Positions 5,049-60,109 are shown, counted from the first letter of the stretch. The stretch is DNA of 64,000 bases from Isurus oxyrinchus (GCA_026770705.1 JANJGN010000001.1:122264001-122328000), one strand, 5' to 3'. Made by a program: numbers and translations. The notes: generated by a model not told the origin, from the letters alone.

Positions 5049-5736
5049 GGCCAGAATTCTTACCTTGATGGATGTGCGGACCCCACCGGCTCGGCAGTGG
5101 GTGGGCAGTCGAACTCCGCTGCCGACATGGGGCCCACCGCCGTTTTGAGTGGGCGGGCCAATTAAGGCCTGCCCAGTGGCCTACCCGACAGGAAGCTTGC
5201 GCTTCCTGTGCAGGGGGGGAGCAGAGGGATTCCCCATATGTCAAAGTGCGCTCTTTTGCACATGTGCACGAAAGAGCGCATTGCTCCCTGAAACTAAGTG
5301 GTGTCTCAGGGAGATCACTGACAGTGTAAAAAACAATAAAAATATAAAAATTATTAACATGTCCCCCTCATGTGACAATGTCACACGAGATGGGACATGT
5401 TAATAAAATGGACATAAACTTTATTAAACTTTTTAAAAACAGACATGAAACCTCATCCAGCCAGTGGATGAGGTTTCATGTATTATCAGGAGCCTGCTGG
5501 GGCTCCTGGCCTGCCCGCCAGCCTTAAGGTTGGACAGGCAGGGTCTTTAATGATCTTAATTAGCCTGTCAATGGCCTTAATTGACCATTGACAGGTCGGT
5601 GGGCGGACAGTTGTTTTCGCTGTCCACCCACCTCAATATTTAAATGGACCAGGATAACGTCGGGGATTCCTCCCAACATCATTTTCCCGTCAGCGAGCGG
5701 GCCCACCACCAAATCGCCAACGGGAAAATTCTAGCC
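5049..5736. mobile_element. PIF/Harbinger-type MITE, family A
   Basis: TIR ggccagaattct / aaaattctagcc, 3-bp TSD CAA. Internal palindromes shared with the copies at 19360 and 26823. Confidence 0.8.
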
Positions 5737-21635: not shown

Positions 21636-22494
21636 TCTGAATCTTGCCCTCCTCCTTCAAATACAGAGGACAGATTGCCATTGCCAATGCCCCCAGTCCA
21701 CAACTGTACTTAATCCACAGATGGCCATAAACAAGATACTAAAAGTATTGACAGAACAGATCATACAGCTTAAATTGATATGCCAACATAAGACGACAAA
21801 CCTTCAACTCCAGCAACCAAAAAGATGGAATAATAGTATAACACAAAGTTGTCTTTCAGCTCATCAGGTCTGTGCAGTTCTTTTGAAGAGCAATAATCTC
21901 CTCAATGTGTTATCCCTCTCAAAGATACCTCTCTCAAAGATACAACCCTGTCGTTCATTCCACCACTTAAGAGCACTGTTAGTATCAGTCAGACTTGAGG
22001 TAGAATTATGGGAAAATAGAATGAAGCTTAACTACACCCATTTAACTTTGAAAGCAGTAGATTTGAGGCAGTGGGAGGTAGCATCCCATTTTACTTATTT
22101 CCCAAAACTGAAATGATATTCCAGCCCACGGTTTCTGGAGTGCACGCTTCAGAGGGTGCACATCCATGGCAAGAAAATAGTGAAGCAAAGAAAATAGTTG
22201 GATGACAACACAGCAGAGGAGGAGAAAACAATACAAGAAAGCCCTATGGGTCTCAGTCCAACATACATACAGTTCCTAACTACTATGATGAGGACCTGAA
22301 TAAAGGCTTGGCAGCACTAATTTAAGAGAAACGGCAAGGCAAAAAATTGACATGAGCCATTAGAACAAAACTTTATAATTAAGCCTCTTTTGCATCCATG
22401 CCTAGGAGTCCTGAATTAAACTGCTTCTATGGAACTGGGAGTGGAAGTTTGAGAAAAGGGAAGCACATCAACTTTGAAGCAGCAGTTTTTTTTT

Positions 22495-23140
22495 CTTCAT
22501 TCACAGGATGTGGGCTTCGCTGGCTGGGCCAGCATTTATTGCCCATCCCTAGTTGCCCTTGAGAAGATAGTGGTGAGCTGCCTTCTTGAACCGCTGCAGT
22601 CCATGTGATGTAGGTACACCCACAGTGCTGTTAGGAAGGGAGTTCCAGGATTTTGACCCAGCAACAGTGAAGAAACGGCGATATATTTCCAAGTCAGGAT
22701 AGTGAGTGACTTGGAGGGGAACTTCTAGGTGGTGGTGTTCCCATCTATCTATTGCCCTTGTCCTTCTAGATGGTAAGTGGTCATGGGTTTGGAAGGTGCT
22801 GTCGAAGCAGCCTTGGTGAATTCCTACAGTGCATCTTGTGGATCGTACACATTGCTCCTACTGTGCATCGGTGGTGGAGGGAGTGAATATTTGTGGATAT
22901 GGTGCCAATCAAGCAATCTGCTTTGTCCTGGATGGTGTCAAGCTTTTTGAGTATTGTTGGAGCTGCAGTCATCCAGGTAAGTGGGGAGTATTCCATCACA
23001 TTCCTGATTTGTGCTTTATAGATGGAGGACAGGCTTTGGGGAGTCAGGAGGTGAGTTACTCGTCGCAGGATTCCTAGACTCTGACCTGCTCTTGTAGCCA
23101 CAGTATTTATATGGCTAGTCCAGTTCAGTTTCTGGTCAAT
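22495..23140 (-). mobile_element. LINE family B 3' fragment
   Basis: ORF 22781..23101 (ATRAGQSLGILRRV...YKAQIRNVMEYSP). Confidence 0.85.
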
Positions 23141-23344
23141 TTTAAGCAGCAGGACAGAATGGAGGGTAAATAATACTTGAAAAAAGAAGGAAAACCAGGT
23201 TTAGATTCCGAGGTCACTGGGTCAAGTACTAGAGATACAAGGAAGATGTGCAGATAGGATTATGTCACCCGAATCAAACTTGTTCTTTCACATTTCAGGC
23301 AAAGTCAGTATTCACTGCTCATCCTGTATTGCAATTCTTATGTA

Positions 23345-24212
23345 ATTCCTCAGATAGTGAAACAGTACGTGTCCACATGCAGCAATGTCTGTACAAAATT
23401 CAAGACTGGGCTGATAAATGGCAAGTAACATTCACTCCATACAATTGCCAGACAATGATCATCTCCAACAAGCAAGAATCTAACCATCACCCCATGACAT
23501 TCGATGGCATTACCATCCCTGAAACCCTCACTATCAACATCCTGGGGGTAAACATTGACCAGAAGCTGAACTGGACTAGCCATATAAATACTGTGGCTAC
23601 AAGAGCCGGGCAGAAACTAGGAATTCTGCGGAAAGTAACTCACCTCCTGACTTCCCAAAGACTGTCCACCACCTACAAGGCACAAGTCAGGAGTGTGATG
23701 GAATACTCTCTATTTGTCTGGATGAGTGCAGCTCTAACAACACTGAAGAAGCTCAACACCATCCAGGACAAAGCAGCCCACTTGATTGGCACCCCATCCA
23801 CCACCTTCAACATTCACTCCCTCCATCATTGACGCACAGTGGCAGCAGTGTGTACCATCTACAAGACGCACTGCAGCAGCTCACCAAGGTTCCTTCGACA
23901 GCACCTTCCAAATCCGCAACTGCTAGCACCTAGAAGGACAAGGGCAGGAGATGCACAGGAACACCACTACCTGCAAGTTCCCGTCCAAGTCACAGACATC
24001 ATCATCCTGACTCAAAAATATATTGCTGCTCCTTCACTATCGCTGGGTCAAAATCCTGGAACTCCCTTCCTAACAGCACTGTGGGTGTTTATACAACACG
24101 TGGACTGCAGCGGTTCAAGAAGGCAACTGATCTCCTTCTCAAACGCAAATTAGGGATGGGCAATAAATGGTGGCCTGTCCAGTAATGCTCACATTGCATG
24201 AATAAATATTAA
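23345..24212 (+). mobile_element. LINE family B 3' fragment, inverted relative to both neighbours
   Basis: ORF 23248..23832 RT C-terminus (WADKWQVTF, ILGVNIDQKLNW, YKAQVRSVMEYS). Confidence 0.88.
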
Positions 24213-24419
24213 AAAGTAGCCACCTTCATGATTCGCTGGATTCCGTGTGATGATGGTATTCCACAGTGCTATCATGTCATGAGTTCCATTATTCTGACCC
24301 AGCAACTATAAAGAATAAAGAATCATCCAATCCCTTATGTCTTGCTGGGTAGTCTGTCTGGTTTTATTCTCATACTTTTATACACTTATACTCAATTCTT
24401 ATATTTTTTCTTGTAGTGG

Positions 24420-24690
24420 AGTAGTTCAGTCAACGTCTTTGCTGTGGGTCAGGCCAGGTAAGGACAACAGGTTTTCTTTCCTCATGGACAGCTGGGTAGG
24501 GTTTTTATGACAATCCAATGGTTTCATAGGTTCTGTAAAGGCGACTATCTTTTTTCTTTCAGACATATTTAAACTAACTGAGTTCAAATTCACCAACTAC
24601 AATGTTGAGATTTGAATTCTCAACTCTGGATTACGAGTCATGGCCTCTGGACAACTAACCCAATAATATAACCAATATGCTACCATAGTG
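24420..24690 (-). mobile_element. Decayed tRNA-derived SINE
   Basis: Similar to 47005-47328; B-box-like remnant on the minus strand. Confidence 0.5.
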
Positions 24691-24721
24691 CTAGATTGGT
24701 ACCAATGTCTTGGCAGTTTTC

Positions 24722-26690
24722 TTTTATTCATTCATGGGATGTGGGCTGCACTGGCTGGACGAGCATTTAATGCCCATCCCTAGTTGCCCATGAGATGGTG
24801 GAGCTGAGCTGCCTTCTTGAACCATTGCAATCCATGTGGTGTAGGTACACACACAATGCTGTTGAAAGGGGGTTTCAGGATTTTGACTCAGTGACAGTGA
24901 AGGAACGGTGGTATATTTCCAAGTTAGGATGGTGAGTGACTTGGAGGAGAACTTCCATGTGGTGGTGTTCCCATCTACTGCTGCCCTTGTCCTTCTAAAT
25001 GGTAGTGATCATGGGCTTGGAAGGTGCTGTCGAAGGAGCCTTAATGAATTCCTGCAGTGCATCTTGTAGATGGTACACACTGCTGCTACTGTGCATCGGT
25101 GGTGGAGGGAGTGAACATTAGTGGATGTGGTGCCAATCAAGCGGACTGCTTTGCCCTGGACAGTGTCAAGCTTCTTGAGTGTTGTGGGAGCTGCACTCCA
25201 TCAGGCAAGTGGGGAATATCCCATCACACTCCTGACTTGTGCCTTGTAGATGGTGGACAGGCTTTGGGGAGTCAGGAGTTGAGTTATTAATCGCAGGATT
25301 CCTAGCCTCTGGCCTGCTCTTGTAGCCACCGTATTTACGTGGCTAGTCCAATTCAGTTTCTGGTAAACGATAACCCCCAGGATTCCGATAATGGGGGATT
25401 CAGTGATGGTAATGCCATTGAATGTCAGGGGGTGATAGTTAGGTTCTCTCTTGTTGGAGATGGTCATTACTTGGCACTTGTGTGGCATGAACCCAACTTG
25501 CCACTTGTCAGCCCAAGCCTGGATGTTGTCCAGGTCTTGCTGCATTTGGACATGGACTGCTTCAGTATCATTGTGCAATCATCAGCGAACAATGCCACCT
25601 CCGACCTTATGATGGAAGTAAGGTCATTGATGAAGCAGCTGATGATAGTTGGGCCGAGTACAATGTACTGAGGAACTCCAACAGTGATGTCCTGGAGCTG
25701 AGGACTGACTTCCAACAACCACAACTATCTTCCTTTGTGCTAGGTATGACTCCAACCAGTGGAGAGTTTTCCCACTGACTCCAGTTTTGCTAGAGTTCCT
25801 TGATGCCACACTCAGTCAAATGCGGCCTTGATGTCAAGGGCAGTCACTCTCACCACGGGAGTTCAGCTCTTTTGTTCATGTTGGAACCAAGGCTGTAATG
25901 AGGTCAGGAGCTGAGTGGTCCTGGCAGAACCCAAACTGGGCATCAGTGAGCAGGTTATTGCTAAGCAAGTGTCACTTGATAGCACTGTTGATTGACCCCT
26001 TCCATTATTTCACTGATGATCGAGAGTAGACTGATAGGGTGGTAGTTGGCCGGTTTGCATTCGTCCTGCTTTTTGTGTACAGGACATACCTGGACAATTT
26101 TCCACATAGCCGGGTAGGCGACACTGTTGTAGCTGTACTGGAACAGTTTGGCTATGGACGTAGCAGGTTCTGAAGCACAAGTCTTCAGTATTGTTGCTGA
26201 AATATTGTCAGGTCCCACAGTTTGCACTAACCAGTACCTTCAGCTATTTCTTGATATCACGTGGAGTGAATCGAATTGTCTGAAGTTTGACATCTGTGAT
26301 GCTGGGGACCTCAGGAGGAGGCTGAGATGAATCATCCACTCGGCACTTATGGCTGAAGATTGTAGCAAATGCTTCAGCCTTATCTATTGTACTGATTCAT
26401 TGGGCTCCCCGGTCATTGAGAATGGGGATATTTCTGCAGCCGCCTCCTTCAGTGAATTGTTTAATTGTCCACCACCATTCACAACTGGATGTAGCAAGGC
26501 TGCAGAGCTTGGGTCTGATCCATTTGTTGTGGGATTGCTTAGCTCTGTTTATCACTTGCTGCTTATGCTGTTTGGCACACAAGTATTCCTTGTGTTGTAG
26601 CTTCACCAGGTTGACAGCTCATTTTTAGGTATGCCTGGTGCTGCTCCTGGCATGCCCTCCTGCACCCTTCGTTGAACCAGGGTTGATCCA
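24722..26690 (-). mobile_element. LINE family B, about 2 kb decayed ORF2
   Basis: GPDNISATILKTCASE, ANYHPISLLS, GVPQ..VLGP, ALFADDC remnants across frameshifted ORFs. Confidence 0.9.
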
Positions 26691-42578: not shown

Positions 42579-42648
42579 CTTTTTGCTTATTCTGCAATTC
42601 TTTCAATTTGGAACAAAGCTCCTCAACCAAGGTCTCAATTCCAGAACT
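42579..42648 (-). CDS. KIAA0232: KIAA0232 coding exon, 70 nt, SSGIETLVEELCSKLKELQNKQK
   Basis: Hand translation. Acceptor ttttcttttag, donor GTATGT, phase 0/1. Matches remembered human SSGIETLVEELCSRLKDLQSKQ. Not in the ORF track. Confidence 0.95.
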
Positions 42649-42859
42649 CTAAAAGAAAACAAAAAATACAACGATCAAAACCTACTTTAATATTTGAAAC
42701 AATTCTTAGATTTATGGAGAACAGCTACTGAGGTAACATGCCAGATGATTTTGGTCACATAAAATTCCTGTTCTATTTAGCTTGAATTGTTTGTGGGCAA
42801 AAGGAATATAGATCAAAGCAGTATCCTGGATCAAAATGTTCTGTGAACGAGCACCCCAA

Positions 42860-43000
42860 AATCACACTACATGGTTATTCATCTCAATGCTGTCAGTAGA
42901 ATCTCACTATGTGTAAAATGATTGTACAAATAGTGATTGCATTTCAAATACTGGTTGTGACATTTTCCAGAATGGTAATAAGGTACTATATAAACATTCT
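42860..43000 (+). mobile_element. Decayed Deu-domain-like SINE 3' part
   Basis: Resembles 55350-55562; L2-type tail aaggtactatataaa. Confidence 0.4.
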
Positions 43001-43104
43001 TGAAATGTAACCCCACAGCAATCAGCACAAGATACATTTCATTAATCCTTTTAGTGGTGGCTTTACCTAATGCTTAGTATTCAAATTAAGAATTCAGAAT
43101 CCGA

Positions 43105-43580
43105 TGGAGCCAACAGAGAGATTGCATTTTTCTATCTGTCCAGTCAGTTCTATTCACTCGCTCTATCCCTGTAGCTCTGCAAGTTTATTTCTCTCAAGTC
43201 CTTGTGAAATCATTCATTATGTCCATTTCCACCATTAGCACTCACTGCATAAAAAAATTCTTCCTCACATTCCTTTGTATCTCTTGCCCAAAACCATAAA
43301 TCTGTGACCTAGTCCTTGTAGCATCAACTAATATGAACAGCCTTTGTCGACCTTATCCAAAGCAGTAATAAACTTATACACCGCCATCAAATCTCCCCTC
43401 GATCTCCTTTACTCTGAGAACAACCCCAGCTTCTCCAACCTAGCCTTGTAACTAAATTCTCTCAATGTTGGAATCATTCTGGTAAATTTCCTCTACACAC
43501 TCTGAAGGATCTTCGCATCCTTCCTGAAGTGTGGAGACCAGAACAAGACACAATACTCTAGTGATGGCCTAACCAGAGCT
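43105..43580 (-). mobile_element. CR1 LINE 3' fragment
   Basis: Similar to 886-1203 and 45912-46410. Confidence 0.7.
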
Positions 43581-45039
43581 TTGCATATTCTCTCTCTTTG
43601 GCAGCGGATCTCTCTTTTGGAAATTAAAAGAAGAGACACCGTCTGTGCTACAAGTCCAGGGTTTTTGGGTTGGGTGTTTGGTTGGGGGGAGGGGGGGGGG
43701 GGGGGTTGCTAGATCTGAGTGTCAATCGTGCACAAGTGTTTTTGAACCCATCACATCGAGCTGAACAACATCAAGTGCTACCAAGCCACACACTCCTTTG
43801 CCAGAGCACTCACTACTCCAGGATGATCCTGGAAGACAATAACCACAGGTTTGTCAGAGTATTCAGTGGCATTTGCTGTATGCCAGAGTCCTCTATATCC
43901 AGTGACTTTGTCCTTTTTGCCAGAAATCAACTTCGCACTTGATGCATGAAATCCAGGATCATCTGGTGGAAGCCCTACCAGGAGGCTCAGAGCTGTGAAA
44001 GAATATTGTTTGGGCACATGTGTTAAAAGCCACAACCATAACCTATGACAGAGAACTTTGTTGTCCTGAAGAGTGAAAAGTGCTCCTAAGGAATCTTACT
44101 GATAACAGGGCAAGGTAGCACTTTACAAGTATAATCAAAATTTCTGTAAGCTAAACAACACACAAACTTAAAGCATTTTATTACAAAATAATTTATTTTG
44201 TTCATTTCTCAGGGGAGAAATGCCATCATATTTGTTGAATCCAGCATTTTTACATATGGCAAAGTGAAATTATGAATGTCAACCATAGCCGACTTCTATA
44301 ATTGATGCATATTATAGATTTATGCCCTCATATTTTGTACACTTATTGAACTTACAAATACGCAAAGCACATAATTATAGTTCCTACAAAACCTTAATTA
44401 CTTGACTGAACACTTAAGCATTTTGTAATATGATGTCAACACAATAGGCAGAGATCACCCAAAACAGAGACATTAAACCGGTATTTCAAACAGAGTGGCA
44501 AAAGAATAATTAATAGAACTAAGTATCCTCCATCTAATTGAAAGACACGTGCAAGAGACAATTAGACACAACATGCCAATTACTTGTGCAGCTGTTCAAA
44601 TACCTAAGGTTTTCAGCAATCTGAAATTCCAAGAATCCTATATAAAAGGGAAAATGTTACATGGAGTTATGGAATTACCTTTAACACTAAGTTATAAAAA
44701 TTAGCATTATAAAGGGTTTCATTTTAACTGGCAGACCAAACATTCAATTTCAGTACCCTCTGTAAGCATATATCCATCTACAGAATTTCTTTTGTACCCA
44801 TTCAACACATGCATGTCAAAAATACCATCAAATACTGCCCTTGTTTCTATTTTTACCGGCTGAGCTAATTGAAAAACATCTACACAACCTTACTGTGAAT
44901 ATCTGTACCATGCTTAGTTTGAAGGCCTTTGACTTCAAGTCGCCCAGAAACCTGTCAACATCATTTCAAATGATTGCATTATGTACCCATTTACAACAGA
45001 ATAATGAAGCTTGGAGAAGCTGACAGACTATAATCAATG

Positions 45040-45135
45040 AGAGAAAGGTGGAGGGAGGTGGGGGGGAGAGGGAGGGGGAGAGAGAGAGAGATAGATAGAG
45101 AGAGAGAAAAAGAGAGAAAAAGAAAGAGAGAAAAA
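45040..45135. repeat. GA-rich polypurine microsatellite
   Basis: gggagaggg...(ga)n tract read directly. Confidence 0.9.
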
Positions 45136-45911
45136 TAAAATTCCAACACCTTACCATCCTGCTTTAGCAGGTAAAAGTTTGGGTGTTCTACGCTCTGCAT
45201 TTCCTCTTACATCACAGGATCACTATCAGCTGACAAGCTGCATACTGAGTCACAGCAATCCAGTGCAGCCAGTTGTATCAAAAATAGATCACGGAACAGA
45301 ATGCCAAGTCTCAAAGGACCAGTTATTCCACTTCTCGATAGCAATGGATGAAGGCATACTGCTTACTCAGATGTTAAAACATTTCTAACCCTCAGCATCT
45401 ACTGCTGTGTTGAATTGTTGATACATTTGATTAAAACATTTTGCAGAGTCATAATCAACTGCTTTAGTAATTGTTTTTGCTGCTACAGCCACCTCCTTTC
45501 ACAACATACCTACATTATTGGCAGATCACTGGCTTTGAACTTCAAACAGACTACTTTCTGCACCATATCTCTTCCAAGAGAACATTCAGGTCCAGTTCCA
45601 CGAAGTTTGCTGCTCATGTATTTTACATGCTGCTTCTTTCAGTGGAAGTTTTTATATCCTACTGCAACAGGTCTTGGCCTCTCCACTAGATATTAACTGA
45701 CCCCTTTCTTTTTGTGTCTATCCACCGCCACATATTCCAGTTCTACACCTTCCAAGCATATCCAAGGCATTGCAGAGTGCTTTTATACAGCCTCTGAATA
45801 TTAAAATTAGCTAACCTCAATTTATGGTGGGATCACAGCCTGGAGAAACAAAGTCCTACTTCAAGTCAGTTACTTGGTAGAATGCCGCTGATATCGAACT
45901 CCAATCATAAA

Positions 45912-46410
45912 ACAGAATCATAGAAAGTCTACCATACACACAGGCCCCTCGTGTCTGTGCCACCTGAGAAACGAGCCACCCAGCCTAATCCCACTTTCCA
46001 GCATTTGGTCCGGAGCCCCCTGTAGTTGCAGCACTTCAGGTTCATATCCAGTCACCTTTGAAATGAATTGAGGGTTTCTGCCTCTGCTGCCCTTTTAGGC
46101 AGTTTCAAATCCCCACAACCCTCCTGGTGGAATTTTTTTTTCCTCATCTCCCCTCCAATCTTTCTAACAATCACTTTCCATCTATGCCCCCAATCACTGA
46201 CTAATCTATTCAGGCCCCTCACATTTTGTACATCGCAATCAAATCTCCTTTCAGTCTCCTCTGTTCCAAGGAGAACAACCCAAACCTATCCGATCTTTTC
46301 TCATAGCTACAATTTTCCAGTCCTGGCAACATTCTCATAAATCTCCTCGGCACTCTCTCTTATGAAACTACATTCTTTCTATAATGAGGTGACCAGAAAT
46401 GCGCACACTA
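45912..46410 (-). mobile_element. CR1 LINE 3' fragment
   Basis: aatcatagaa tail and CR1-type 3' sequence. Confidence 0.7.
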
Positions 46411-46944
46411 CATCTTATGATTCATTTTATTTTGTATTCTCAATTTATAAAGTGTTGTGGGATAAGTTAAATATAGAGGTAAAAGAACATCTCTAAAATA
46501 AGGGACACTCGTTTATGGGTTTAACATAATAATGGATTGAATTGTAGGATTTAATCCCAAAAGAGGCAGCAAAAAAAAAAAAATCCCATTTAAAATGAAA
46601 TTTGACTATTCCCGACAGAGCACGTGTCTTCATTATGATAAAATAGACTACCCCCTGACTTACAGTGAGCAACACCAAGGAGATCTGTTAATTATATATT
46701 AAAAGTTTTGTATATGCCACACACTTCATTTCCACATTAACCTACTTCTTCTTGTGCCAAAATTTGCATCAATTTGTTCCTTTTGTCTGCTCTAGCTTCA
46801 GCAGAAAGCAATACAATCTCCAGAAAAAGAAAACATTTACACTGTTTTTCCAGGGTTTACACAACTTTTCCAAAGTTACATATTTACACCCTAAATAGTA
46901 GCCACAGCTTTCCTGCTGGCATATTTTTAAAAATCAGAACGCTA

Positions 46945-47903
46945 ACAGCACAGGAGGCGGCCATTTGGCCCATCACATCCAAGCCAGATCCCTGCCTTTT
47001 TTTTTAAAGTTCGTTCGTGGGATGTGGCCATCACTGACAAGGCCAGCATTTATTGCCCATCCCTAGTTGGCAATTTTAAGAGTCAAGCACATTGCTGTAG
47101 GTCTGGAGTTACATGTAGGCCAGGTGAGGATGGCAGATTTCCTTCCCGAAAAGATTTTTTTAAACGACAATCAGCATTGGTTTCATAGTCATCATTAGAC
47201 GTTTAATTCCAGACATGTATTGAATTCAAATTCCATGGTGTTGGTGATGGGATTCAAACCCACAGCATTACCCGGGGTCTCTGGATTACTAGTCAAGTGA
47301 CAATACCATTACGCCACCATCTCCCCCTAGCTGCTCAGCTAGTCTCACTCCCCTCCTTTTCCCCATGACCCTGCAATTTTCTCTCTACAGATAATAATCC
47401 AAATCCCCTTTGAAAGCCACAATTGATTCTTCCTCCACCACACGCTCAGTCAGTAGATCCTGACCACTTCACTGTGTAGAAAAGGTTTTCCTCATGCCAC
47501 CATTGGTTCTTTTGCCAATCACCTTAGTTTCCTTTCCCTAACTACTGTGTCCAGATGGCTCATGATCTTGAACACTTTGATTAAATCTCTTCTCCACCTT
47601 CTCTCCCTAAGGAGAACAGCCCAGCTTCACCAAATTATTCTCTTAACCGATATCTCTCATTCCTGGAACTACTCTCGTAAATCTTTTCCCTAAAGCCTTC
47701 ACATCCTTCCTAAAGTCTGGTGCCCTGAATTGGGCCGAACTAGTTCTTTATAAAGGTTTATCATAACTTCCTTGCTCTGGTACTTTATGCCTTTATTTGT
47801 AAAGTCCAGGATCCGGTGTGCTGTATTAACTGCTTCTGTCAATCTGCCCTGCCACCTTCAACAATTTGTGCACGTATACACCCAGGTCCCTCTGCTCCTG
47901 CAC
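46945..47903 (-). mobile_element. CR1 LINE 3' fragment with a nested tRNA-derived SINE (about 47005-47328)
   Basis: LINE similar to the reverse complement of 2812-3378. The SINE has a B-box-like gggattcaaaccc and shares its tail with LINE family B. Confidence 0.7.
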
Positions 47904-47904
47904 C

Positions 47905-48857
47905 ATATAGATGGGTATATATACCTCAACATGGCTACTTAAAATTTTAAGAACTGGACAAAGGCTTTAAAAAGGCTGAAGCTATGTCTGCCTGTAACCC
48001 TGAACAAAAGGAATTTTCTGGCAAATTCCGAAAAGTGGACATTTCGTTATCTCTGAAGAGACGCTAATGACACCTGTGGCTGCAAGTTCAAAGGGAATTA
48101 TAAAAGGCTATCTACATTTTCTAAGTGAGGCCTGGCAAATGGAGGCTACCAATCTACTTTGAAATTCTTAATGGTTGGGACATTAACAATCTCAAGAATC
48201 CAGACAAAGCCAAAGTGGACAGGTGGGAGTCATGTGACATGACCTCCTAGCTGAAGAAACCTGCAACAATGTCTTGCTGTAGTGCTAATCAGTCTGCCAT
48301 CTTCCATCTAACAAGCAGCAGCTCATACAAAGGGCTTGGACCAGGTCTGAATGTCTGATCCCCATCTACCCTGTTTCTACTGGAACTTCTACACTTCTGT
48401 ACCAGTGCCTACAAGACTTATTCATCTCTGCATGCCTATCTCATCGTGGAAGTCATCTCTACTAGAAAAGTGAATTATGCAACATCAGTCTTCAGCCTTC
48501 CGACCTCTGTGAAGGAATACTCCATTGGACTTTGATTCTGGACTCACTTGAAACAATAATTCTTTGCTCTGTGGTCTTTGTCCTGTAAATCTTTTTCTCT
48601 ATCCTTCTTTTATTTTATGAATGCACTAGGGACTACGTAACAACAACCCCTCCCATGTTTTGAGTGTGTGTAAATAAACTAACCCTCTGAGTTTACCCTA
48701 TCTCAAGTTTGCTGTGGGTCACTCCAAAACTGAGGGATTGGGAAGTATGCCACCGCTTATCAAGAGGGAAATCAAAATCAAAACCCTTCTGTTTACGGAC
48801 GAGTCGTGATAGGAGAAATCAGGGTTGTTTAAATTAAATCCCCTCCTGCCAATAACA
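47905..48857 (+). mobile_element. Probable solo LTR
   Basis: About 0.9 kb ending in TAACA, with AATAAA near 48672. Abuts the end of the preceding LINE fragment. TSD not resolved. Confidence 0.4.
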
Positions 48858-50079
48858 CCCTTCACAGCATTAAGTATCATCTGCCATGCAGCATTTTGCT
48901 TTTCTACGTTCAACTTGTACTATCAACCTGACACCTGTCATAAGCACCCTTTTTCTGCTTTATCTTACTCTCTATCTGTCATCATCCAAGGAGTGCTGGT
49001 TTTGTTGCTCCTATCTTTCCCCTCATGGGAATGTACCTCAACTGTATCAAAATTATCTCTTTAAAAGGCAGCACATTGCTCATTCAGTTTTGTCTGCCTT
49101 TATCTTTGATTCCAATTTACCTGCACCAGATCCGAACTCACCCTATTGAACCTGGCTCTCTCCAGATTAATTACTTTTCTCTGAATCATTCTTTGTCCTT
49201 TTCCACAGCTAACCTAAACTTTAGGATATTATGATCACTGTCTTTAGATGTTCCCTCCTTGTTTTAAACTGACATGCTCAGAGATAACATTCACTCATCC
49301 AAATAAAAGCCTGCTTTGATGCTGCATTTTAAAATAAATAGAATTATTGCATCAACAAATATATAAAACACGTGGCCATTAACAATCTACTTCACTGGAC
49401 TATGGGGTAAAGTTTAAGTGAAATGAGTACGATAAAATAAGGTATAATACCAAGCCAGAAAAAAAAACTCATCAGATACTGAACTGTGTGAACAACCAGC
49501 AGTGATAACTGATGGTGAGTGCAAGAATCAAAATATTTGCTATCTAGTGCATACACACTAGGTTTACCTTACTTACAAACATAGTGAGTGAACTGAAGAC
49601 AAAACAACTGATCCAACATCAGTACATGGATAACTGAAACAGATAACTTGTTTAGTATGTATTAAAATAATTTTAGGAGGCAAGATATCACAGATTTTAG
49701 TTTGTTTTCTGAACATAATAGATGATTGATAAAACTTACCTCCTTAAGCCAGACATAATTTCAGGGTGTTGGAAAAGTCTGCTGTGTTACACTTTTAAGC
49801 TTCACTGCATGTAGTATTGCCCTTGACCAGAGATAGTACTCGTGCAGCATGACAGATTAGTTTCTCTAGCATGAAGAATGTCAGACGAGGATTAAACAGC
49901 TGCTGCACAGATCAGCTGCCTGTCCACATGAAGTAACTTAAGGCAGCATGTTTCACTGGCTGCTGCTTCTATTGAATCTAGAAGCCCCTAGCTCAATGTT
50001 TTCATGGCAATTTTTCTGAATAAACATACGAATTAATACTGCTTAGGTAACAACGCAAAAATGACACTGATACCATAAC

Positions 50080-50952
50080 AGTGCTGTATTTGGATGTGGA
50101 CTGCTTCAGTATCTGAGCCGCCGCAAACGGTGCTGAATACTGTGCTATCATCAGCGAACATCCCTATTTCTGAGGAGAGGTCATTGATGAAGCAGCTGAA
50201 GATGGTTGAGCCGAGGATACTACCCTGAGCAGCTCCTGCAGTGACGTCCTGGAATTGAGATGATTGACCTCTAACAACCACAATAACTTCCTTTGTGCTA
50301 GGTGCAACTCCAACCAACAGTGTTTTCTCCCCCGATTCCCATTGACTCCAGTTTTGCTAGGGCTCCTTGATGATACACTTGATCAAATGCTGCCTTGATA
50401 TCAAGGGCAGTCATGCTCACCTCACCTCTGGAGTTCAGCTCTTTTGTTCATGTTTGAACCAAGGCTATAATGAGGTCAGGAGCTGAATGATCCTGGCAGA
50501 ACCCAAATTGAGCGTCAGTAGCAAGTTATTTCTAAGCAAATGCCACTTGATTGCACTGCTGACGATCCCTTCTATCACTTTACTGATGATCAAGAGCAGA
50601 GTGATGGGGTGGTAATTGGCCAGGTTGGATTTGTCCTGCTTATTGTGGATGGGATATACCCGGACAATTTCACACAATACCGGGTAGATGCCAGTGTTGT
50701 GGTTGTACTGGAACAGCTTGGCTTGGGGTGCAGCAAGTTCTGGAGCACAGATCCTCAGTATTATTGCCAGAGTATTGTCAGGACCCACAGCCTTTGCAGT
50801 ATCCAGTGCCTTGAGCCATTTCTTGATATCACATGGAGTGAATCAAATTTGCCGAAGACTGGCACTTGTGATGCTGGGGACCTCCAGAGGAGGCTGATGG
50901 ATCATCCACTCGATGCTTCTGGCTGAAGATTGTTGCAAATTCTTCAGCCTTA
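50080..50952 (-). mobile_element. LINE family B internal RT fragment
   Basis: GPDNTLAIILRICAPELA, ANYHPITLL, QGSILG...FADDS. Confidence 0.85.
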
Positions 50953-52702
50953 ACTGCAGTTCTGCTTTAGTGTGACATGAAAGCATATTCAAGTTATTGC
51001 AAAACATTGGACTGTGGGCAGCATACTCTATTTTTAATCTTAGTGAAAAGTTAGATTACGATCATACAAAACATTGGGAGAGGAAAGGCAAGAAAGGAGG
51101 AGGATCAGAGGTAAGGAAAAAACAGATCAGCAGAGGGAGAAGAAATGAAACAGCCAGCTATCAGAAGAAGGAAAATACATCCAGCTGTGGTTGTGAATGA
51201 GAAATACTGTAAAAGGAGAAATCAAATGGCAGAAGAGTAGCCTCACAGGGGCACATGGAGCCAGGGTTGGGGTGTGGGGTAAAACGATTATTCAATGACA
51301 AGACTCTCACGTCTAAATAATTCAAGAGTGGACAGTGAGAAAAAAGAGGGAGGAATAGGAGATGCACAAGGAGGAGGAAGGGGTGAAGCATGTTTCAATG
51401 ACTAGTGCTGGAAAAATAAACAGGTTCCCAGGGCCAAGTCAACTACTTTCTGTAATAGGGGGCAATAGGCCAGGGATGGTTTCCCTTGGATTAGAGTGCA
51501 CAAAGTTGTTTTTTCCTTCAATGAAAGAGAGGGTTTAAACAGTGGATCAGCAACAGTTTTTCTGTTCAGTGCAGGTAAAGGAGGCTGAGTGGATAAATCT
51601 TGCTCAATAGCAAAGGTCCAAAATGTTGCCTTTGGGAGAGGGCAAAAAACATTGGTGAGTGCAGACAGGGGAAGTAGGGGTGAAGCTAGAGTTCAGAGCA
51701 AAAGGCTTTTATAATCTTGGCTTGCTTAAAATAAGTCAGCAAGTACCAAAAACAGCACAGCAGCAGAATTATATAACTGAATAAACTTGAATACAAAATA
51801 TTTGATAACTTGCATTTACCTCAATGAGTAGCATGAGCCAGTTTGCTAGTGTATAGTTCAGAGAATCCTGGTTTGATTTTAGAGCATTTTAAATGAAAAT
51901 CAGTCTCTACATTCAAGTTGCTTCTAGACTTTCTCTGGATACAAACACAGGGAAAAAATTGCACTGAACACAGATATAAGCAGAGGCAAGTGGACAACAA
52001 TCTCGATGGTCCTTTGGTACAACTTAGGAACTCTTTTTGAATTGAAAGTCAGATGTGATCAAGAGTCATGACTTTAAGATTGTCTCTGAAAATAGAATCA
52101 CCTGTATTACTGATCAAATTCAACTTTAAACTCACAGCAATCTTGGTCTTTGGTCTGAAGCTCTCTGAAACCAAATTTCAAACCAAGACAAAATCCTGCA
52201 TTCATTTGCCTCACTGAGGAAAATATTCAATGTTTTCTGCAAGGCAAAGACAAAAGCTCCACAACTATATCTTGCAACTTTTAGGACTGACATTACACTG
52301 TCCACAATAACAGAAGACAATGTCCAGAATTTGCTACATCTTTCAACACATTCCTGGTCCACGGTAAAAGCTTTTGACAAAGCTCTGTACTTTTTGTGAA
52401 AGACAAAAATGTTACAGTTTGTAACTTGCAAAAGCTAGAGTTCATCGGGCCTATAAATTATGTTGGCCAAATAGTCTAGAAAAACCCTAAAACACCAGCT
52501 CAGGAAACGATGGCAGTGTTGATTTATAATTAGTCAAAAACATGCTGCATTGCTCCTCTAGTTTGAAGGGCAATGCCAAAACTTTACCAAAAGATAGCTT
52601 TCAAACTTCATTCATTAGCTGCAAAATATCCTTACAGTTCAAAGAGTTATTTAGATTTATCTCAGAGGACAGGCGTTTGGTCTGTGTGTGACATTTTAGC
52701 TT

Positions 52703-52860
52703 AAATAAAAACAGAAAATATTGGAAATATATCAGAATAGAATAAAAGGTCATTGATCTAAAACATTAACTCTGTTTCTCTCTCCACTGGTGCTACCTGA
52801 TTGCCTGAGTATTTGCAGGATTTTCTGTTTTTATTTCAGATTTCCAGTATTTTGCTTTCG
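52703..52860. mobile_element. Old Penelope-like terminal fragment with a short inverted piece
   Basis: aaaaacagaaaat... facing ...attttctgtttttatttcagatttccag. Flanking repeat acattttagct/accatttagct. Confidence 0.55.
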
Positions 52861-53789
52861 AATTGACCATTTAGCTCACTTGTTTCAAGTTATCTTCTGC
52901 AAGAATTTCAACACACTGTGGTCGACAATTTTCATCAGAATTGTAATGCAAATCCCAAGTATAGAAGATTGTATTTCCTCCTTCTCTTCTGCCAGAAACT
53001 TAACTTTTCAAAAATAACTCCATCCCTTCACAATTACCCAACACCAATCATCAAAGTTAGACCAGCTAAAGAACACAAGAGTTAGAGGACACTGAGGCCT
53101 TCGGAACACTTCAATATGAAATAACATATCAATTCAGGTAAGGATCATCTGGACTGGCAGCAAACTATAATATTAGATACCTGCAGCTGCAACACAACGC
53201 AGTCTTATTCCCACCTTCCTACATTTCTGTGGCAGACCGACAAACAAAAATATGAATTTCTTTTAAATTTTAAAGGAACTGGGCAACTTTAAAATTAAAA
53301 ATAAAGTAGTAACTGATATAGCCTCACACAGGGAAATCTCACCTTTAAATTGCTCCTGATTTTGATAAGCAGAGGTTCAGCCAAGCAGAGCTGCTGCTGG
53401 TGTAAAGGAACAGATTTATTATCCAGCAAGAGCTGCTTTGATTGGTCCAACTTCTGCTTCTAGATTAGAATACAAGCCACCCATGCTGTGCAGAGATCAC
53501 TCCATGAGACAGTATGAATTAATATCTTTAAGAATTTAAACTTAAATTTCTCCTGTTTCCTTTAGAATTCAAGAAATTCAGATTTATGTTGCATCTCTTC
53601 TAGTTATGAGCAGTTGAATAGCGAGTTCCCTTTATCAGCCAGCCTTGCATCCTCCTTATATCCTTGTTGCATCCTTCCCAATTTGGGAACACCTAATCTA
53701 AAATGACACTTCAGTGGAATACTGAGGCAGTGACGCACAGTCAGAATCCTAACTTTCAAGTGAGGCCGTGCTTTATCAGGTGGGTGCAA

Positions 53790-55345
53790 ACGTACAAGCA
53801 AGGAGCAGGAGCAAGCCACTCGGCCCTTGGAGCCTGCTCCGCCATTTAATAAGATCATTATTGATCTGACCGTAACCTCCCACCTACCCCCAATAACCCT
53901 TCACCCCCTTGTTATCAAGAATCTATCTACCTCTGCCTTGAAAACGTCAAAGACTCTACTTCCACTGTCTTTTGAGGAAGTGAGTTCCAAAGACTCTCGG
54001 CCATCAGAGAAAAAAATTCTTCTCATGTCTGCTTTAAATGGGTGGCCCCTTATTTTTAAACAGTGATCCCTAGTACTAGGTTCTCCCACAAGAGGAAATG
54101 TCCTCTCCACATCCACCGTCAAGTCCCCTGAGGATCTTATATGTTTCAATCAGGTCAACTCTTACTCTTCTAAATTCCAGCAGATACAAGCTGAGCCTGT
54201 CCAATCTTTTATCATAAGACAACCCATCCATTCTTGGTGTTAGTTTAGTAAATGTTCTCTGAACTACTTCTAATGCATCTGCATTCTTCCTTAAATAAAG
54301 AGACCAATACACTACACAACACTTCAGATATGGTCTCACAAGTGCCCCGTACAACTGATGTGCTTCAGTTTAACTTACAAGCGTAGATAAAGGTAGGGTA
54401 GTGCCTTTGGAACAGAAATATGAAAGACAGAGGTGTAGAGACATTTGCCAGCAGAAGGAAAGGATCCAGGTGTGTATCATTAGCTAGCTGAAACCATTCA
54501 GTTTCAGCTAGCTAATGGTATACACCTGGATCCTTTCCTTCTGCTGGCAAATATCTCTACACCTCTGTCTTTCATATTTCTGTTCCAAAGGCACTACCCT
54601 ATCTTTATCTACACAAAAGTCTACCTGCTTAATTTGAATCAATCCCTTTTGAATTCACCATGCTTCCTTATATTTGCCTGGCCAAACTGGGCATATGTTC
54701 TCGTTTTTTAGCTGATCAACAAATTACACTCATACAGCACCTTTAACATAATAAACAGTCCCTAAGTGCTTCAATCTCTCACCCTCCCCTCCTCTTGATC
54801 TTGTTTTCTGTCCCTCACTCCTCTCTCTTGCTCTCGAGTCCTCTGTCTTGTACTTTCTGTTTTAATGTTCAGTTTCCCTCAGAATAAATGATAACATTCA
54901 ATAAGCTTTTCTCATTACTTGCTGTACCTGCACATTAGCCTTTTCTGATTCATGCACGAGGACACCCACACCCTCTGCGTCTCAGAGCTCTGCAATCTCT
55001 CACCATTTAGATAATATGCTTTTTATTCTTCCTGTCAAAATGGACAATTTCACATTTTCCCACATTGTACTCCATTTTGCAGATCTATGCCCACTCACTT
55101 AACATATATATGCCCCCTTGTAGCCTCCTAATGTCCTCTTCATAACTTACTTTCCCACCTTGGTATCATGAACAAATTTAGCAATCATAACTTCTTACAA
55201 TTTGTATAAATGATTTGGATGAAGGCACCGAAGGTGAGGCCCCAGCATTGATCCCTGGCTCATTACATCCTGGCAACCAGACTAAGACCCATTTATGGCT
55301 ATGCTCTGTTTCCTGTTAACTGGCCAATCTTCCATCCATGCCAAT
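53790..55345 (-). mobile_element. CR1 LINE 3' portion, interrupted at about 54358-54905
   Basis: ORFs 53901-54149 and 54076-54354 are CR1 RT C-terminus. RT sequence resumes at about 54905. Confidence 0.85.
54383..54612. repeat. Near-perfect palindrome, 112-bp arms, 6-nt loop
   Basis: 54383-54494 is the reverse complement of 54501-54612 with no indels and 4 transitions by manual count. Confidence 0.97.
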
Positions 55346-55580
55346 ATGCCATAGAACCATTCAAAGAAGAGGAGTCCTGTTGGATGTCCTGTCCAACGCT
55401 TATTTATTGCTCAATGCTAGCATAACCAGATTTCTGATCATTTTCCTCATTGCTATACACAAACTGATTGTTATGTTTCCTTACAACAGAAACTATTTTT
55501 CAAAAGTGCTTAGTTGGCTGTGAAGTGCTTTGAGATGTCCTGAGGATGTGAAAGGTGCTCTAAATTGGGGGGTGGTGCAG

Positions 55581-55636
<56 letters not shown>

Positions 55637-55640
55637 GAGA
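55581..55640. repeat. (GA)n(GACA)n microsatellite
   Basis: Read directly. Confidence 0.95.
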
Positions 55641-56289
55641 ATAACCCTTTGAATGTGATTTTTCATGTTTCTGTAACAGGGATCATGAAATTGCTATTGA
55701 ATGTGGTTTTGCATCATAGTCTAGTAGATGCTTTGTAAAGAAGAGGCATTTTTATTTGTTCAAAGCTGAGGTGTGGGAAGAATAGCACCATCCTGATTTC
55801 TCTAAACCTTGCACTTCAACGAACTCTCTACACTACATATTTTCAGCTGATCTAAGCATGCAGATTTAATTATTCGCATGCTCAGATCAGCAATCAGTAA
55901 TAAAAACGCATAATGGAAGTAGGTCAATCATTTTAGTAATAAAACTAGCACATTGCCTATGGCATGGCTAACAGCAAGTTGATGGATTCATTGTTCCACA
56001 ATAATTAGGGCTGTATGTTATGTTATGCACAGTGCATTATCAGGCCAGTGATTTCGAGACATTGCTAAATTTTGTTTTTATTGCATGCTATTCAGGAATG
56101 AGTGTTTTTTGGACTCACTATACCATTGCTCATAGGAAAAAGATCAATTATTTAAGGATTAACAGGAGACGGAATGAATGAGAGGGGGGAAGCGAAGATC
56201 CAGAGATAGGAGGGGAGTGTGAGAGGAGATACAGGGGAGCACAAGTGGAAAGGGGGGTTATGATAGTACTAGGAAAAGTGTGAAAGGTA

Positions 56290-56660
56290 GGAAGTACAAG
56301 ACAGGATTCGAGAGCAAGAGAAAGGAGTGAGGGACAGAAAGCAAGACCAAGAGGAGGGGAGGGTGAGAGTGTGAAGCACTTTGGGGCTGTTTATTATGTT
56401 AAAAGTGCTGTATGAGTGTAATTTGTTGATCAGCTAAAAAACGAGGACATATGCCACATTAGTAGTTTGGCCAGACAAATGTAAGGAAGCATGGTGAATT
56501 CAAAAGGGATTGATTCAAATTAAGCAGGTAGACTTTTGTGTAGATAAAGATAGGGTAGTGCCTTTGGAACAGAAAAAATAAAAGACAGAGGTGTAGAGAT
56601 ATTTGCCAGCAGAAGGAAAGGGTCCAGGTGCGTACCATTAGCTAGCTGAAACCATCCAGT
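56290..56660. repeat. Donor segment: inverted copy at about 54501-54858, direct copy of its 3' 120 bp at 54383-54502
   Basis: Direct sequence comparison. Confidence 0.95.
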
Positions 56661-57084
56661 CAACATGAAGCCATTAACAAAGTTCATTACGTGTCAGAAT
56701 TTATTTTTCAAACATTTGATAAGTTAATCTAACTTTATTACAGAACAATTGACATGACCACAGTTGAAATACTGCTTTCAATTTTTGACATCACAACATT
56801 CAGAAAGAGGGGTTTGGAGAAAACCTACACAGCTTTTTTTCATTGGTGAAAGTAGGAAAATATTTAGAAGCAATAGAAGTGGTAACTCCAAGGTTGGGCA
56901 TTGCAGGCGCCTGTGGGTAATGCTGGCTGGAAAATTGCTGACATTCAGTGTCAAATTTTCCATTCGCTATAATTAATAGATTTAAAATCAAGTACCACAG
57001 GCCCACAATCTCCCAGCCAGCATTCCACAGGAGTGCCATTCTATGCTGGAAATGGCCAACAAACAAATGAGCCCAAAACAAAGG

Positions 57085-57262
57085 CAAAACATTACTGAGG
57101 CTGGAAAGCTGAATAAAAACAGAAAATGTTAGAAATAATCAAGCAGCGACAGAGAGAGGACTCAGTGCTGACACTAGGTCAGTGACCTAGAACATTAACT
57201 ATGTTGCTCTTTCCATTGATGCTGGCTGATTTGCTGATCATTTCCAGCATTTTCTGTTTTTT
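57085..57262. mobile_element. Old inverted pair of Penelope-like terminal fragments
   Basis: aaaaacagaaaatg... and ...cattttctgttttt facing each other. Confidence 0.5.
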
Positions 57263-57605
57263 TTAATTATAGACGAATGAGCCCTACAGACACAAGCTGG
57301 CTAATTCGTTTGAACTGTGGGCAGAGTAGTACAGGTCGGGGCACCATTAAAAATCAGATTAAATCAAAGCATGAAAAAACTGCTTTTCTTCATGTAATAG
57401 CAGATACATGTCATATTTTAATAAGTTAATATATTGTTAATGAATTGCATTTAAAAAAGAACAATGCATATTGTCTTTTATTGTGGTCATAATTAGATAA
57501 GTATGGATGGAGATGATCAAACACTGAAATATAATGGTTTTGAGCTGATACAATTATAATTCTCAATGCTATCGGAATTTATTGTAAAATAGTGGTGCCT
57601 GTGTC

Positions 57606-58405
57606 TGTTATGTGTCTGTGTACATGTGAGAGACTTAATTGGATTAAAGGCAGCTGGTCTGAAGCCTTTGATGTAAACATGGTTAACATGGGGGAAGTTT
57701 AGAATGTAAGGTGTAAAAAGACATTTGCATTTTTAAATAAACCAAACTAGATTGTTTTCAAAGGAGGGGTGAAATGTGTCCCCCAGCCAGGTGAAGTTTA
57801 GAAACAGTGTGTTTACTTTTCCCAAAGATTACTGGTAAAACTTAGTACTATGAGAGATTTTTATTATCAGAAAGGTAAAGTCCAAAGACATAGTGAAACA
57901 ATGGGAATTTGCATTCAAAGGGGAAAATATGTATAAAGGAGTGAATATATGTATAAAGGATGTGTGTAAGGGTAGGCACTTTTAAGATCTAACAAGTATT
58001 AAAAACCTTCAGCATCTATGCCTCAAGCTGCTGCTTTCAAATAACTGAAGTTAAGAAAATCTACTTTGAATTTGGCTGGTTCAGGGTGTGTCACCTTGTC
58101 TGGGTCTTTTAAAGTCTATGTTTTACTGTTGCCTTCACAAAAGTGTAACTGGGAGTCAGAATAAGTAGGGGATTTAGAAGTTATCATAGCAGTAATCTGT
58201 ATATCTATGTTTAAAATCATTTCTCTTATTAATTAATGTTTAATCCTAGTTTTGTAAAAACCTATAAGACTTGGTCGTCTTTTACTACTGAATTCAAGGC
58301 ACACCACAAAATTTATACAAATTACAAAACAAGTTGTGGCAGTTGTTTCAAGTTTCCCTTCGGGATTTGAACAACTCAGCATATACCATCGGCTGTGCCT
58401 TAACA
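57606..58405 (+). mobile_element. Probable solo LTR
   Basis: TGTTA...TAACA termini, about 800 bp, internal TATA-like duplication atatgtataaagga. TSD not found. Confidence 0.45.
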
Positions 58406-58436
58406 CCCCTGCTAAGCAACCAGTCAAAAAGATTAA

Positions 58437-58669
58437 CAAAAGCAAAAACAGAAAATGCTGGAAAAACTCAGATCTAACAGCATCTGTGGAGAGAAAAACA
58501 AAGTTGACGTTTCGAGTCCTCATGGCTCTTCTTCAGCTCTGAAGAAGTCATACGGACTCCAATCGTTAATTGTTTTTCTCTCCATAGATCCTGCTCGATC
58601 TGCAGTTTTTCCAGCATTTTCTGTTTTTGTTTCAGATTTCCAGCATCCGCAGTATTTTGCTTTTATCTT
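58437..58669. mobile_element. Inverted pair of Penelope-like terminal repeats joined at the hammerhead-like core, TSD-flanked
   Basis: Junction ...tcttcttcag-ct-ctgaagaag.... Flanks agtcaaaaagattaa (58422-58436) and agtcaaaagattaa (58670-58683). Confidence 0.8.
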
Positions 58670-59204
58670 AGTCAAAAGATTAAGAATGGTCCGATCACAA
58701 TACTGGGACATTGATCAAATGATCTTACCAATCCACAAAAATTCTACTTTCATGCTTCTCTGTTTGCCAATCAAGTTTACTTGAGGTTTTCCGCAGATGG
58801 TGTAAAGAATATACCAGTGCTCAATAATATAAGAATTCAGAAAATTTGCAACATAATCATGCTTCAGACACCTGCGTTTTAAATGTTTTGAAAAGCTTCA
58901 ATACAATTTATGTTTGTATTATCTGATTATGATTTTAAAAAATTCATTCACGGGATATAGGCTTCACTGGCTGGGCCAGAATTTATTGCCAACCCTAGTT
59001 GATAACTAAAAAGCAGAAAATAACCAAGAACCACAAGTTAATACAACTGTGGCAATAGTAACACCAATCTTATTCCTAAAAAATCATTGCTACATTGATT
59101 TGCACAAATGCTTATAGAAATTTGCAAGCAGTGGGGAAAAAACCCAATCAGCAGTTTTTTTCATATAATTTTCAAGTTTAATTCAGATTTGCAATGCTCC
59201 TTAC

Positions 59205-59342
59205 TTCATCAGAAGCAGAACGCAGACATTGAACAGCAGCCTGTTTCTTCATTTCCTCAAGACTCAGATCTGAACACTTCCTTTTTCCTCTTCCCCATTT
59301 CTTGGTGGTTCCTTTCTCCCAGCCCAAGAAGATGTCATTTTC
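59205..59342 (-). CDS. KIAA0232: KIAA0232 coding exon (first in window), 138 nt, ENDIFLGWEKG...QCLRSASDE
   Basis: Peptide closely matches the remembered human KIAA0232 N-terminal region (ENDIFLGWEKG..KKW...CSDL.LEEMKKQAAVQCLRSASDE). Acceptor aaacag, donor GTAAGG, phase 0/0. Confidence 0.95.
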
Positions 59343-59688
59343 CTGTTTCATAAAATTAGAGTGGAACAATTAGCATACAGAAAAATTACCACTTCATAAT
59401 TCAAAGCGAAGCTCAACTGAATATTGGATTTGGTAAAATGCAATAAATCGATCCATTAACAAAGAGCACTAAGCATGGACAGAATAATGGGATACTGCGG
59501 TTGCATAACATCACTCATGTTATGAGGGACATTGAAGCAGACAGTAGAAATTTGTTCAGAATACAAGATGCATGTCTGAAAAAGACATCAAAATGGTTGT
59601 ACAAGATGTTAAGAAAGCACAATGATGAGTATCTGAAATTTTTGTATTTTTTATTTGAAGTGTGAAAAACAAACAATACAATTTAGAA

Positions 59689-59800
59689 TTTTCCCTAGTT
59701 CTGTGGAAGGGTCATGAGGACTCGAAACGTCAACTCTTTTCTTCTCCGCCGATGCTGCCAGACCTGCTGAGTTTTTCCAGGTAATTCTGTTTTTGTTTTG
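59689..59800 (+). mobile_element. Young 112-bp Penelope-like insert with hammerhead-like motif and perfect 14-bp TSD
   Basis: TSD aatacaatttagaa at 59675-59688 and 59801-59814. Motif agtt-ctgtgga-a-gggtc atgag gactc-gaaa-cg-tc-aact. Confidence 0.85.
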
Positions 59801-60109
59801 AATACAATTTAGAAATTGTGTTATTAGTAATATTTTTGAGCTGAAGTAAAGCACTATTTGTTACAGGTTTGCCATTGTAGCTAGTACTGGTGATGATTTC
59901 TCCTTTGGTTATTTTGCTAAATATCTGTATGCTTTCGTTATCGACCATCCTCTCAGTGGAAACAGTGTCTCCCTATATAGTCTATCACAACCCTTCACAA
60001 TATAAAAAATAACCTATTAAATCTCCCTGAACATTTTCTGCTCAAGAATAATGCAGCTTTTCCAGTCTCCATAAAACTCAAGTCATCACTTGGTAGTACA
60101 GAACATGAG

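Follow-up and report, generated by a model that had tools for sequence, protein, structure and literature searches.

A palindromic insertion in a KIAA0232 intron of Isurus oxyrinchus, probably a scar of templated break repair

A hairpin with two long arms and a very short loop lies in an intron of Isurus oxyrinchus, and it raises the question of whether a hairpin-RNA gene is arising there or whether the structure records an accident of DNA repair. It is most likely an old harmless repair scar rather than a new hairpin-RNA gene. The whole stretch of DNA that was analysed (64 kb) is referred to as the window, and all coordinates are counted from its first letter.

Structure and setting of the three copies

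The palindrome was composed of a short arm and a long arm, both matching one donor in the same window.

54383..54502, plus strand: short arm, a direct copy of donor 56540–56660, including the loop and a 2-nt microhomology at the turn (54501–54502)
54495..54500, plus strand: hairpin loop of 6 nt in donor plus-strand orientation (equal to donor 56653–56658, with one C-to-T difference)
54501..54858, minus strand: long arm, an inverted copy of donor 56289–56652 that pairs with the short arm over its first 112 nt
56289..56660, plus strand: donor, intact and otherwise single-copy within the window
56372..56421, plus strand: decayed 3′ tail of a LINE/SINE within the donor, with 78% identity to 833–882 across 50 nt

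When the window was compared with itself by BLASTN, 72 matches were found (39 inverted and 33 direct), only 8 of which reached 85% identity over 60 nt, and three of these 8 belonged to the palindrome. The short arm matched donor 56540–56660 directly (112/121 identical, 1 gap, E=3e-45), and the long arm matched donor 56652–56289 in the inverted sense (337/366 identical, 19 mismatches, 3 gaps, E=4e-151). The original prediction of a direct copy of about 56540–56660, followed by an inverted copy of about 56290–56654, was thus confirmed, with the second donor tract placed at 56289–56652. The arms of the hairpin (54383–54494 and 54501–54612) were 112 nt each with 6 nt between them, and they differed at 4 of 112 positions, all transitions and without any indel, exactly as predicted. 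From the base of the stem to the loop, the runs of perfect match were 10, 48, 31, 2, and 17 bp. The donor was separated from the insertion by a gap of 1,430 nt (2.16 kb start to start), and the two copied tracts ended within 8 nt of each other on it. Sensitive BLASTN and nhmmer searches of the 64-kb window found no further copy of the donor beyond these two and the match of its LINE/SINE tail. The tail, which we take to be L2, has its counterpart at 833–882, and the latter served as an outgroup for donor 56372–56421.

Pairwise divergence among the three copies was 3.6–6.7%, lowest between the arms (3.6%) and 5.3% and 6.7% for the other two pairs. Heterozygosity in a shark has been given as 0.2% (PMC10587355). 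An assembly artefact or haplotype mis-join is therefore an unlikely source of the structure, since the copies differ by far more than this value, and the earlier argument that the differences among the copies speak against an artefact holds. The 64-kb window contained 0 undetermined bases. At its right end, the long arm (54832–54863) resembled the arm sequence itself, in comparison with 56568–56599 (75–78% over 32 nt). Where it departs from the donor in this part, among other things by a 2-nt insertion, it shifts toward the arm sequence, which is possibly the trace of a further small template switch.

Donor and insertion were located within the gene KIAA0232, which is encoded on the minus strand.

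42649..59204, minus strand: KIAA0232 intron of 16,556 nt with GT-AG borders, holding donor and insertion
59205–59342 and 42580–42648, minus strand: flanking KIAA0232 coding exons, placed by tblastn and splice borders
59342–59205, 42648–42580, 38230–38144, and 36829–33536, minus strand: KIAA0232 coding exons by tblastn
30255–30166, 28294–28187, 17278–17183, and 15108–14920, minus strand: KIAA0232 coding exons by tblastn, continued

The long minus-strand open reading frame of the window corresponded to DUF4603. Among the best 120 of 333 matches, the closest named relative was KIAA0232 of the whale shark (96%), followed by rays (90–93%) and chimaera (88%). In tblastn alignments, the whale shark, sawfish, and chimaera proteins continued from 59342–59205 directly to 42648–42580 with no exon between them, so that donor and insertion lie within one intron, 2.5 kb from its 5′ splice site and 11.7 kb from its 3′ splice site. 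The predicted position of the palindrome inside KIAA0232 pre-mRNA was borne out by the domain and by this exon mapping. The first coding exon was not found within the window, where exons were mapped over 14920–59342.

Insertion site and the proposed repair

The patch as a whole (54359–54858, 500 nt) sat between two collinear pieces of one old LINE fragment.

53802..54358, minus strand: left host LINE piece, 69% identical over 578 columns to 10931–11495
54359..54382, no strand assigned: filler of 24 nt at the left junction, with a 10-nt inverted match to the host and an 8-nt direct match to the right flank
54857..55345, minus strand: right host LINE piece, 70% identical over 504 columns to 10324–10818
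54364..54876, plus strand: span of the 8-mer TTCAGTTT, present at all three junctions, at 54364 (filler), 54497 (turn), and 54868 (right flank)

The patch is read as an interruption because the LINE on its two sides (53802–54358 and 54861–55345) continues along the same copy (10324–11495, about 70% identity). The host LINE was also collinear with three more copies (near 7990, 20311, and 37260). It is presumably CR1; the domain seen in the analysis was RVT_1 only, in an open reading frame at 10115–10513 of the reference copy. The homologous interval measured 25 nt in three of the four other LINE copies, and the fourth carried an insertion of its own at this site. Since 11–13 nt were kept in the acceptor, 12–14 host bases were lost, a pre-insertion state that is reconstructed from paralogous copies only about 70% alike. 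A short repeat at 10826–10917 also interrupts its LINE, a few bases from the position homologous to that of the palindrome (54358–54859); the near-agreement may be a coincidence or may mark a break-prone site.

Microhomologies of 2 nt were present at the turn (54501–54502) and at the right junction (54857–54858). Neither poly(A) nor a simple target-site duplication was found at the junctions, and the sole 8-nt flank repeat lay within the filler and again 10 nt beyond the right junction, away from the ends of the insert. The filler contained a 10-nt exact inverted match to retained and lost host bases, a match that relies on an outgroup LINE copy for the lost ones; as good a match was seen in 9 of 20000 shuffles and in 20 of 21266 24-mers of the window. 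The match was not significant for the retained bases alone (1688/20000 shuffles) or in a gapped local alignment to the outgroup alone (1323/20000). The first half of the filler was likely templated from host DNA at the break, and the last 11–12 bases gave just chance-level matches of 6–8 nt nearby. The 64 kb hold 7 plus-strand copies of TTCAGTTT, three of them at these junctions, and the copy at the turn extended to 9 nt in common with the right flank. Random triples of 41-mers shared 8 nt in 10 of 20000 draws, with a pairwise chance of 1.3–4.8%. As this recurrence was spotted post hoc, it would count as moderate evidence for templated repair.

The patch is probably the neutral scar of a single germ-line break repair, in which templated synthesis included a fold-back. 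We infer the following order of steps and enzymes. At the left broken end, a short filler would first have been templated by bases lying at the break, after which this end would have entered the intact donor at 56540 and been extended there by 121 copied nt. Its 3′ end would then have snapped back over the 6-nt loop, probably after a brief pairing with the right broken end in which a few bases were gained and a 5-bp stem was completed. Synthesis would have returned along the newly made strand and continued on the plus strand of the donor as far as 56289, and the product would have been joined to the right end at the 2-nt overlap. After the repair, the three copies would have drifted as independent neutral DNA, and their divergences fit a star. 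A fold-back gives both tracts a common end automatically, which would explain why they stop so close together on the donor. The brief pairing with the right end would account both for the 9-nt match seen at the turn and for the single base of the loop that departs from the donor. At donor end 56660, no strong fold-back pre-exists (z=-0.06), a point against this reading; the 2-bp stem found there would be lengthened to 5 bp by that pairing.

Long tracts of this kind would need a processive polymerase of the SDSA/MMBIR type, and the filler and the turn could be products of Pol theta. The original prediction of templated copying with a turn-round stood for the tracts, and filler, deletion, and microhomologies were added to it; Pol theta as sole cause was not supported. 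Templated insertions of Pol theta measure 3–10 nt, with a processivity of up to 100 nt (PMC9962433), so Pol theta alone is unlikely to have made tracts of 121 and 358 nt. Against the pattern of a 3–10-nt insert from the break flank, the main tracts failed and only the filler fitted; the filler could be accounted for by Pol theta. The same product would result if synthesis had begun at the right end and switched between strands, or if templates had been switched at a stalled fork with no two-ended break, and one sequence cannot fix the direction. Human–chimpanzee data favour inter-strand over intra-strand switches (PMC5453318), which counts against the fold-back.

The shark patch probably belongs to the repair-mediated duplications, a known class. 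These are inserts of at least 50 bp in a transposon fragment (here 500 nt between collinear LINE pieces), with microhomology, small deletion, or filler but no poly(A/T), as was found. Their donor lies on the same chromosome at a distance of 50 bp to 5 kb (here a 1,430-nt gap) and is the only other copy in the genome (here one donor within the 64-kb window), and the orthologous site in a related species is empty (here paralogous LINE copies served as empty sites). Pace et al. (2009) described 824 human cases with a donor within 5 kb and acceptors of up to 619 bp, 295 of the 824 being intronic (PMC2671141). Microhomology with deletion and filler was their commonest breakpoint class (10/39), and chimeric acceptors with two tracts made up 20 of 1,136 (PMC2671141). 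The shark patch resembles them in lying in an intron and inside a transposon fragment, in its single donor less than 5 kb away, in a length below 619 bp, and in combining microhomology, a small deletion, and filler without poly(A); the two-tract class also exists there. It is unlike them in that a single donor was copied in both senses by overlapping tracts, which gives a palindrome, whereas the donors of their five proximal chimeras lay 289–3,432 bp apart (PMC2671141). The main text of that paper has 0 occurrences of 'invert' or 'palindrom', and sharks are absent from the genomes it treats. The observation is real and ordinary: the patch is, in all likelihood, a clean example of a repair-mediated duplication in which the two tracts make up a palindrome, and all its junction marks can still be read although millions of years have passed.

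Other known systems share parts of this pattern. The four-point short-range template switch of type 1-3-4-2 (Loytynoja and Goldman 2017, PMC5453318) likewise makes an inverted repeat with an inverted spacer in one step, and template-switch miRNAs (Monttinen 2023, PMC10710096) are likewise intronic hairpins. The four-point model has one fork and one reversed fragment, whereas the shark patch needs a 2-kb jump and several switches. Such a switch cannot explain the whole insert; taken by itself, the short arm would agree with type 1-3-4-2, provided that the long arm was already in place. With SD-MMEJ and Pol theta products (PMC5728401, PMC9962433), the patch shares snap-back and trans-templated pieces, a deletion of less than 30 nt, and a junction repeat motif, the hallmark of SD-MMEJ (PMC5728401); it differs in that the tracts of 121 and 358 nt came from 2 kb away rather than as 3–10-nt inserts from flanking DNA. 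Inverted duplications are the commonest class of human inversions (277 events, median 284 bp, 1–15-nt microhomology; PMC12350158). The patch is similar to these in size and microhomology, but the human polymorphic events are recent, whereas the shark copy is old and was inserted away from its donor.

Alternative histories and age

A history in two events is rather unlikely. An inverted duplication of 56289–56660 would have come first, and a later 1-3-4-2 switch would have copied 121 nt back, inverted the spacer, and made the palindrome; later arm-to-arm conversion would look similar. The geometry, including the orientation of the loop, is that of type 1-3-4-2, which together with its mirror case accounts for 23% of human–chimpanzee events (PMC5453318). 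The arm–arm divergence was the lowest of the three pairs, the direction predicted by a later or homogenised short arm, but the difference from arm–donor divergence was not significant (4/112 against 19/356, p=0.28). Two rare events would be needed at one spot, and 121 nt is longer than the examples of 28 and up to 83 nt in PMC10710096.

Sites within the stem bear on the same history. Three sites differed in the short arm only, one in the long arm only, and five in both arms against the donor (at 56573, 56577, 56580, 56622, and 56631); these five include the two motifs quoted in the original prediction as arm states absent from the donor. Three of the five were clustered within 8 nt. The distribution 3:1:5 was compatible with equal rates (exact p=0.32, or 0.55–0.71 if the clustered sites are counted as fewer events). 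At 56631, T in both arms stands against a CpG in the donor, a difference easily taken for a change that is shared and derived. Within the long arm, divergence from the donor was similar in the part shared with the short arm and in the unshared part (5/112 and 14/244, p=0.80). The outgroup covers 52 nt that have no partner arm; of the 5 differences in them, 3 were donor-derived, 1 was arm-derived, and 1 could be assigned to neither side, so that donor changes occurred at a similar rate without a partner arm. Change on the donor alone would suffice for the shared arm states, and the suggested arm-to-arm homogenisation was not upheld by the comparison of divergences within the window (p=0.28) or by the site classes (p=0.32). 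If the five shared sites are counted as donor changes, 8 polarised changes are donor-derived and 2 long-arm-derived, numbers too small for significance; an excess on the donor may mean that a different allele was copied, or that the arms hold the derived state at some of the shared sites.

The corrected divergence between long arm and donor was 5.5% (interval about 3–8%), which at the mammalian rate of Pace et al. corresponds to about 13 million years (7–20). Dating by the epaulette-shark rate gave about 39 million generations (20–196), a value that is probably too old and was taken only as a direction (older). A divergence of about 5.5% suggests that the palindrome is at least some 10 million years old. 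A hairpin gene 'in the making', as had been suggested, does not agree with a divergence that implies millions of years. In contrast, one short-repeat pair of the window was 92/92 identical, so that truly recent events look different from the palindrome. The human genome holds 718 near-perfect palindromes of more than 200 bp; palindromes in general lie mostly in intronic and intergenic DNA, and those with short spacers are fragile (PMC7999016). A near-perfect short-spacer palindrome is expected to be unstable (PMC7999016); that of the shark nonetheless persisted, and the patch shows that a 230-bp short-spacer palindrome can do so in a vertebrate intron.

A template of RNA instead of DNA is distinctly improbable, because the agreement of strand and position that it would explain arises by chance in about 1 of 4 cases and because the junction 8-mer favours a one-pass model. 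Both broken ends would have been primed on nascent KIAA0232 intron RNA in a twin-priming geometry, extended to an RNA end near 56660, and joined at 2 nt. Followed inward from either flank, both tracts have the sequence of the donor plus strand. Repair from both ends would therefore require the minus strand, the sense of the pre-mRNA, to have served as template two times. The donor is transcribed just before the acceptor, and the end of such a template would explain why both tracts stop within 8 nt. RNA-templated repair has a literature; Pol theta has reverse-transcriptase activity (PMC9962433), and L1 is known to undergo twin priming that leaves a duplication where the inversion begins (PMC12350158). 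The patch resembles such twin-primed L1 5′ inversions in having both ends on the same template strand and a microhomology join, but it lacks an L1-type body, poly(A), and a target-site duplication, and nearly the whole inverted piece is duplicated. So near-total an overlap of the tracts is extreme for twin priming. Furthermore, the presence of TTCAGTTT at the turn would be a coincidence, and poly(A/T) was found in 0 of 39 proximal duplications by Pace et al., who read these as DNA-templated (PMC2671141). If RNA was the template, intronic fold-back duplications would record the template strand.

Folding of the intron RNA and short repeats of the window

That selection has kept the hairpin because small RNAs arise from it, or because it acts in editing or splicing, would be compatible with any origin and is very improbable. 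The fold was very stable as RNA (-209 kcal/mol, z=-31, with 0 of 200 shuffles as good), no indel separates the arms, they have persisted for long, and the hairpin is intronic, where template-switch miRNAs are enriched (PMC10710096). However, Drosha prefers a 35-bp stem and a loop of at least 10 nt (PMC10710096), and the stem here is 112 bp with a loop of 4–6 nt. No Rfam family matched in the 64 kb at gathering score. At E up to 5, 52500–60000 gave 8 matches, all below gathering score, which were generic hairpins and alike on both strands; the best scored 48.5 against 85 bits and 47.5 against 60.4 bits. Sense-strand G–U wobbles were not enriched, making up 1 of the 4 mismatches in the stem and 6 of the 19 in the long-range duplex, compared with 3 and 9 on the antisense strand. 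The hairpin RNA gene of the original prediction was not supported in stem and loop size, Rfam membership, or sense-strand wobbles.

The long-range duplex that had been predicted to compete with the hairpin was recovered. Over the shared 112 nt, the long arm paired equally well with the short arm and with the donor (-200.1 and -199.5 kcal/mol), and the donor, which is transcribed first, would form 344 bp with the long arm at a time when the short arm has yet to be made. The hairpin is therefore not privileged. The full fold was mixed, with 84 pairs of the long arm to the short arm and 26 to the donor. In another KIAA0232 intron, inverted LINE pairs at 22483–25830 (680 and 859 columns, 79–81% identity, 385–516 nt apart) gave longer duplexes than the palindrome, of -956 and -1163 kcal/mol, which also speaks against a special role of the hairpin. 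The intron RNA would form a duplex if transcribed, and passive ADAR editing of it is plausible without its being a gene. The palindrome would matter more if small RNAs came from its arms or if its template was nascent RNA.

A mobile origin of the patch, whether as a multi-copy fold-back, as some other element, or by 3′ transduction from a LINE, is scarcely credible: short self-inverted repeats are common in the window and the donor contains a LINE-like tail, but the inverted repeat is internal and not terminal as in fold-back elements and MITEs, there is no poly(A), element 3′ end, or simple target-site duplication of the kind left by retrotransposition, the parent lies 2 kb away with no other copy in 64 kb, and the orientation of the tail is wrong for target-primed copying.

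A family of short repeats was present at 141–275, 3973–4110, 52696–52850, 57100–57264, 58433–58666, and 59697–59802, several of its members being small fold-backs, and it may be of Penelope-like, hammerhead-bearing origin. Kinship of the palindrome with this family was considered and rejected, as neither donor nor insertion gave a profile match or an Rfam hammerhead. For the short repeats themselves, no Rfam hammerhead was matched in 64 kb at gathering score or in 52500–60000 at E up to 5, and a literature search on hammerhead-bearing fold-back repeats gave no match. The identical 92-nt pair (10826–10917 and 59707–59798) is inverted, 49 kb apart, and set in unrelated flanks, and it represents a very recent insertion or conversion. 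The fold-back repeat at 58440–58632 was self-inverted at 83%, and a 56-nt sequence at 5351–5406 was self-inverted at 88%.
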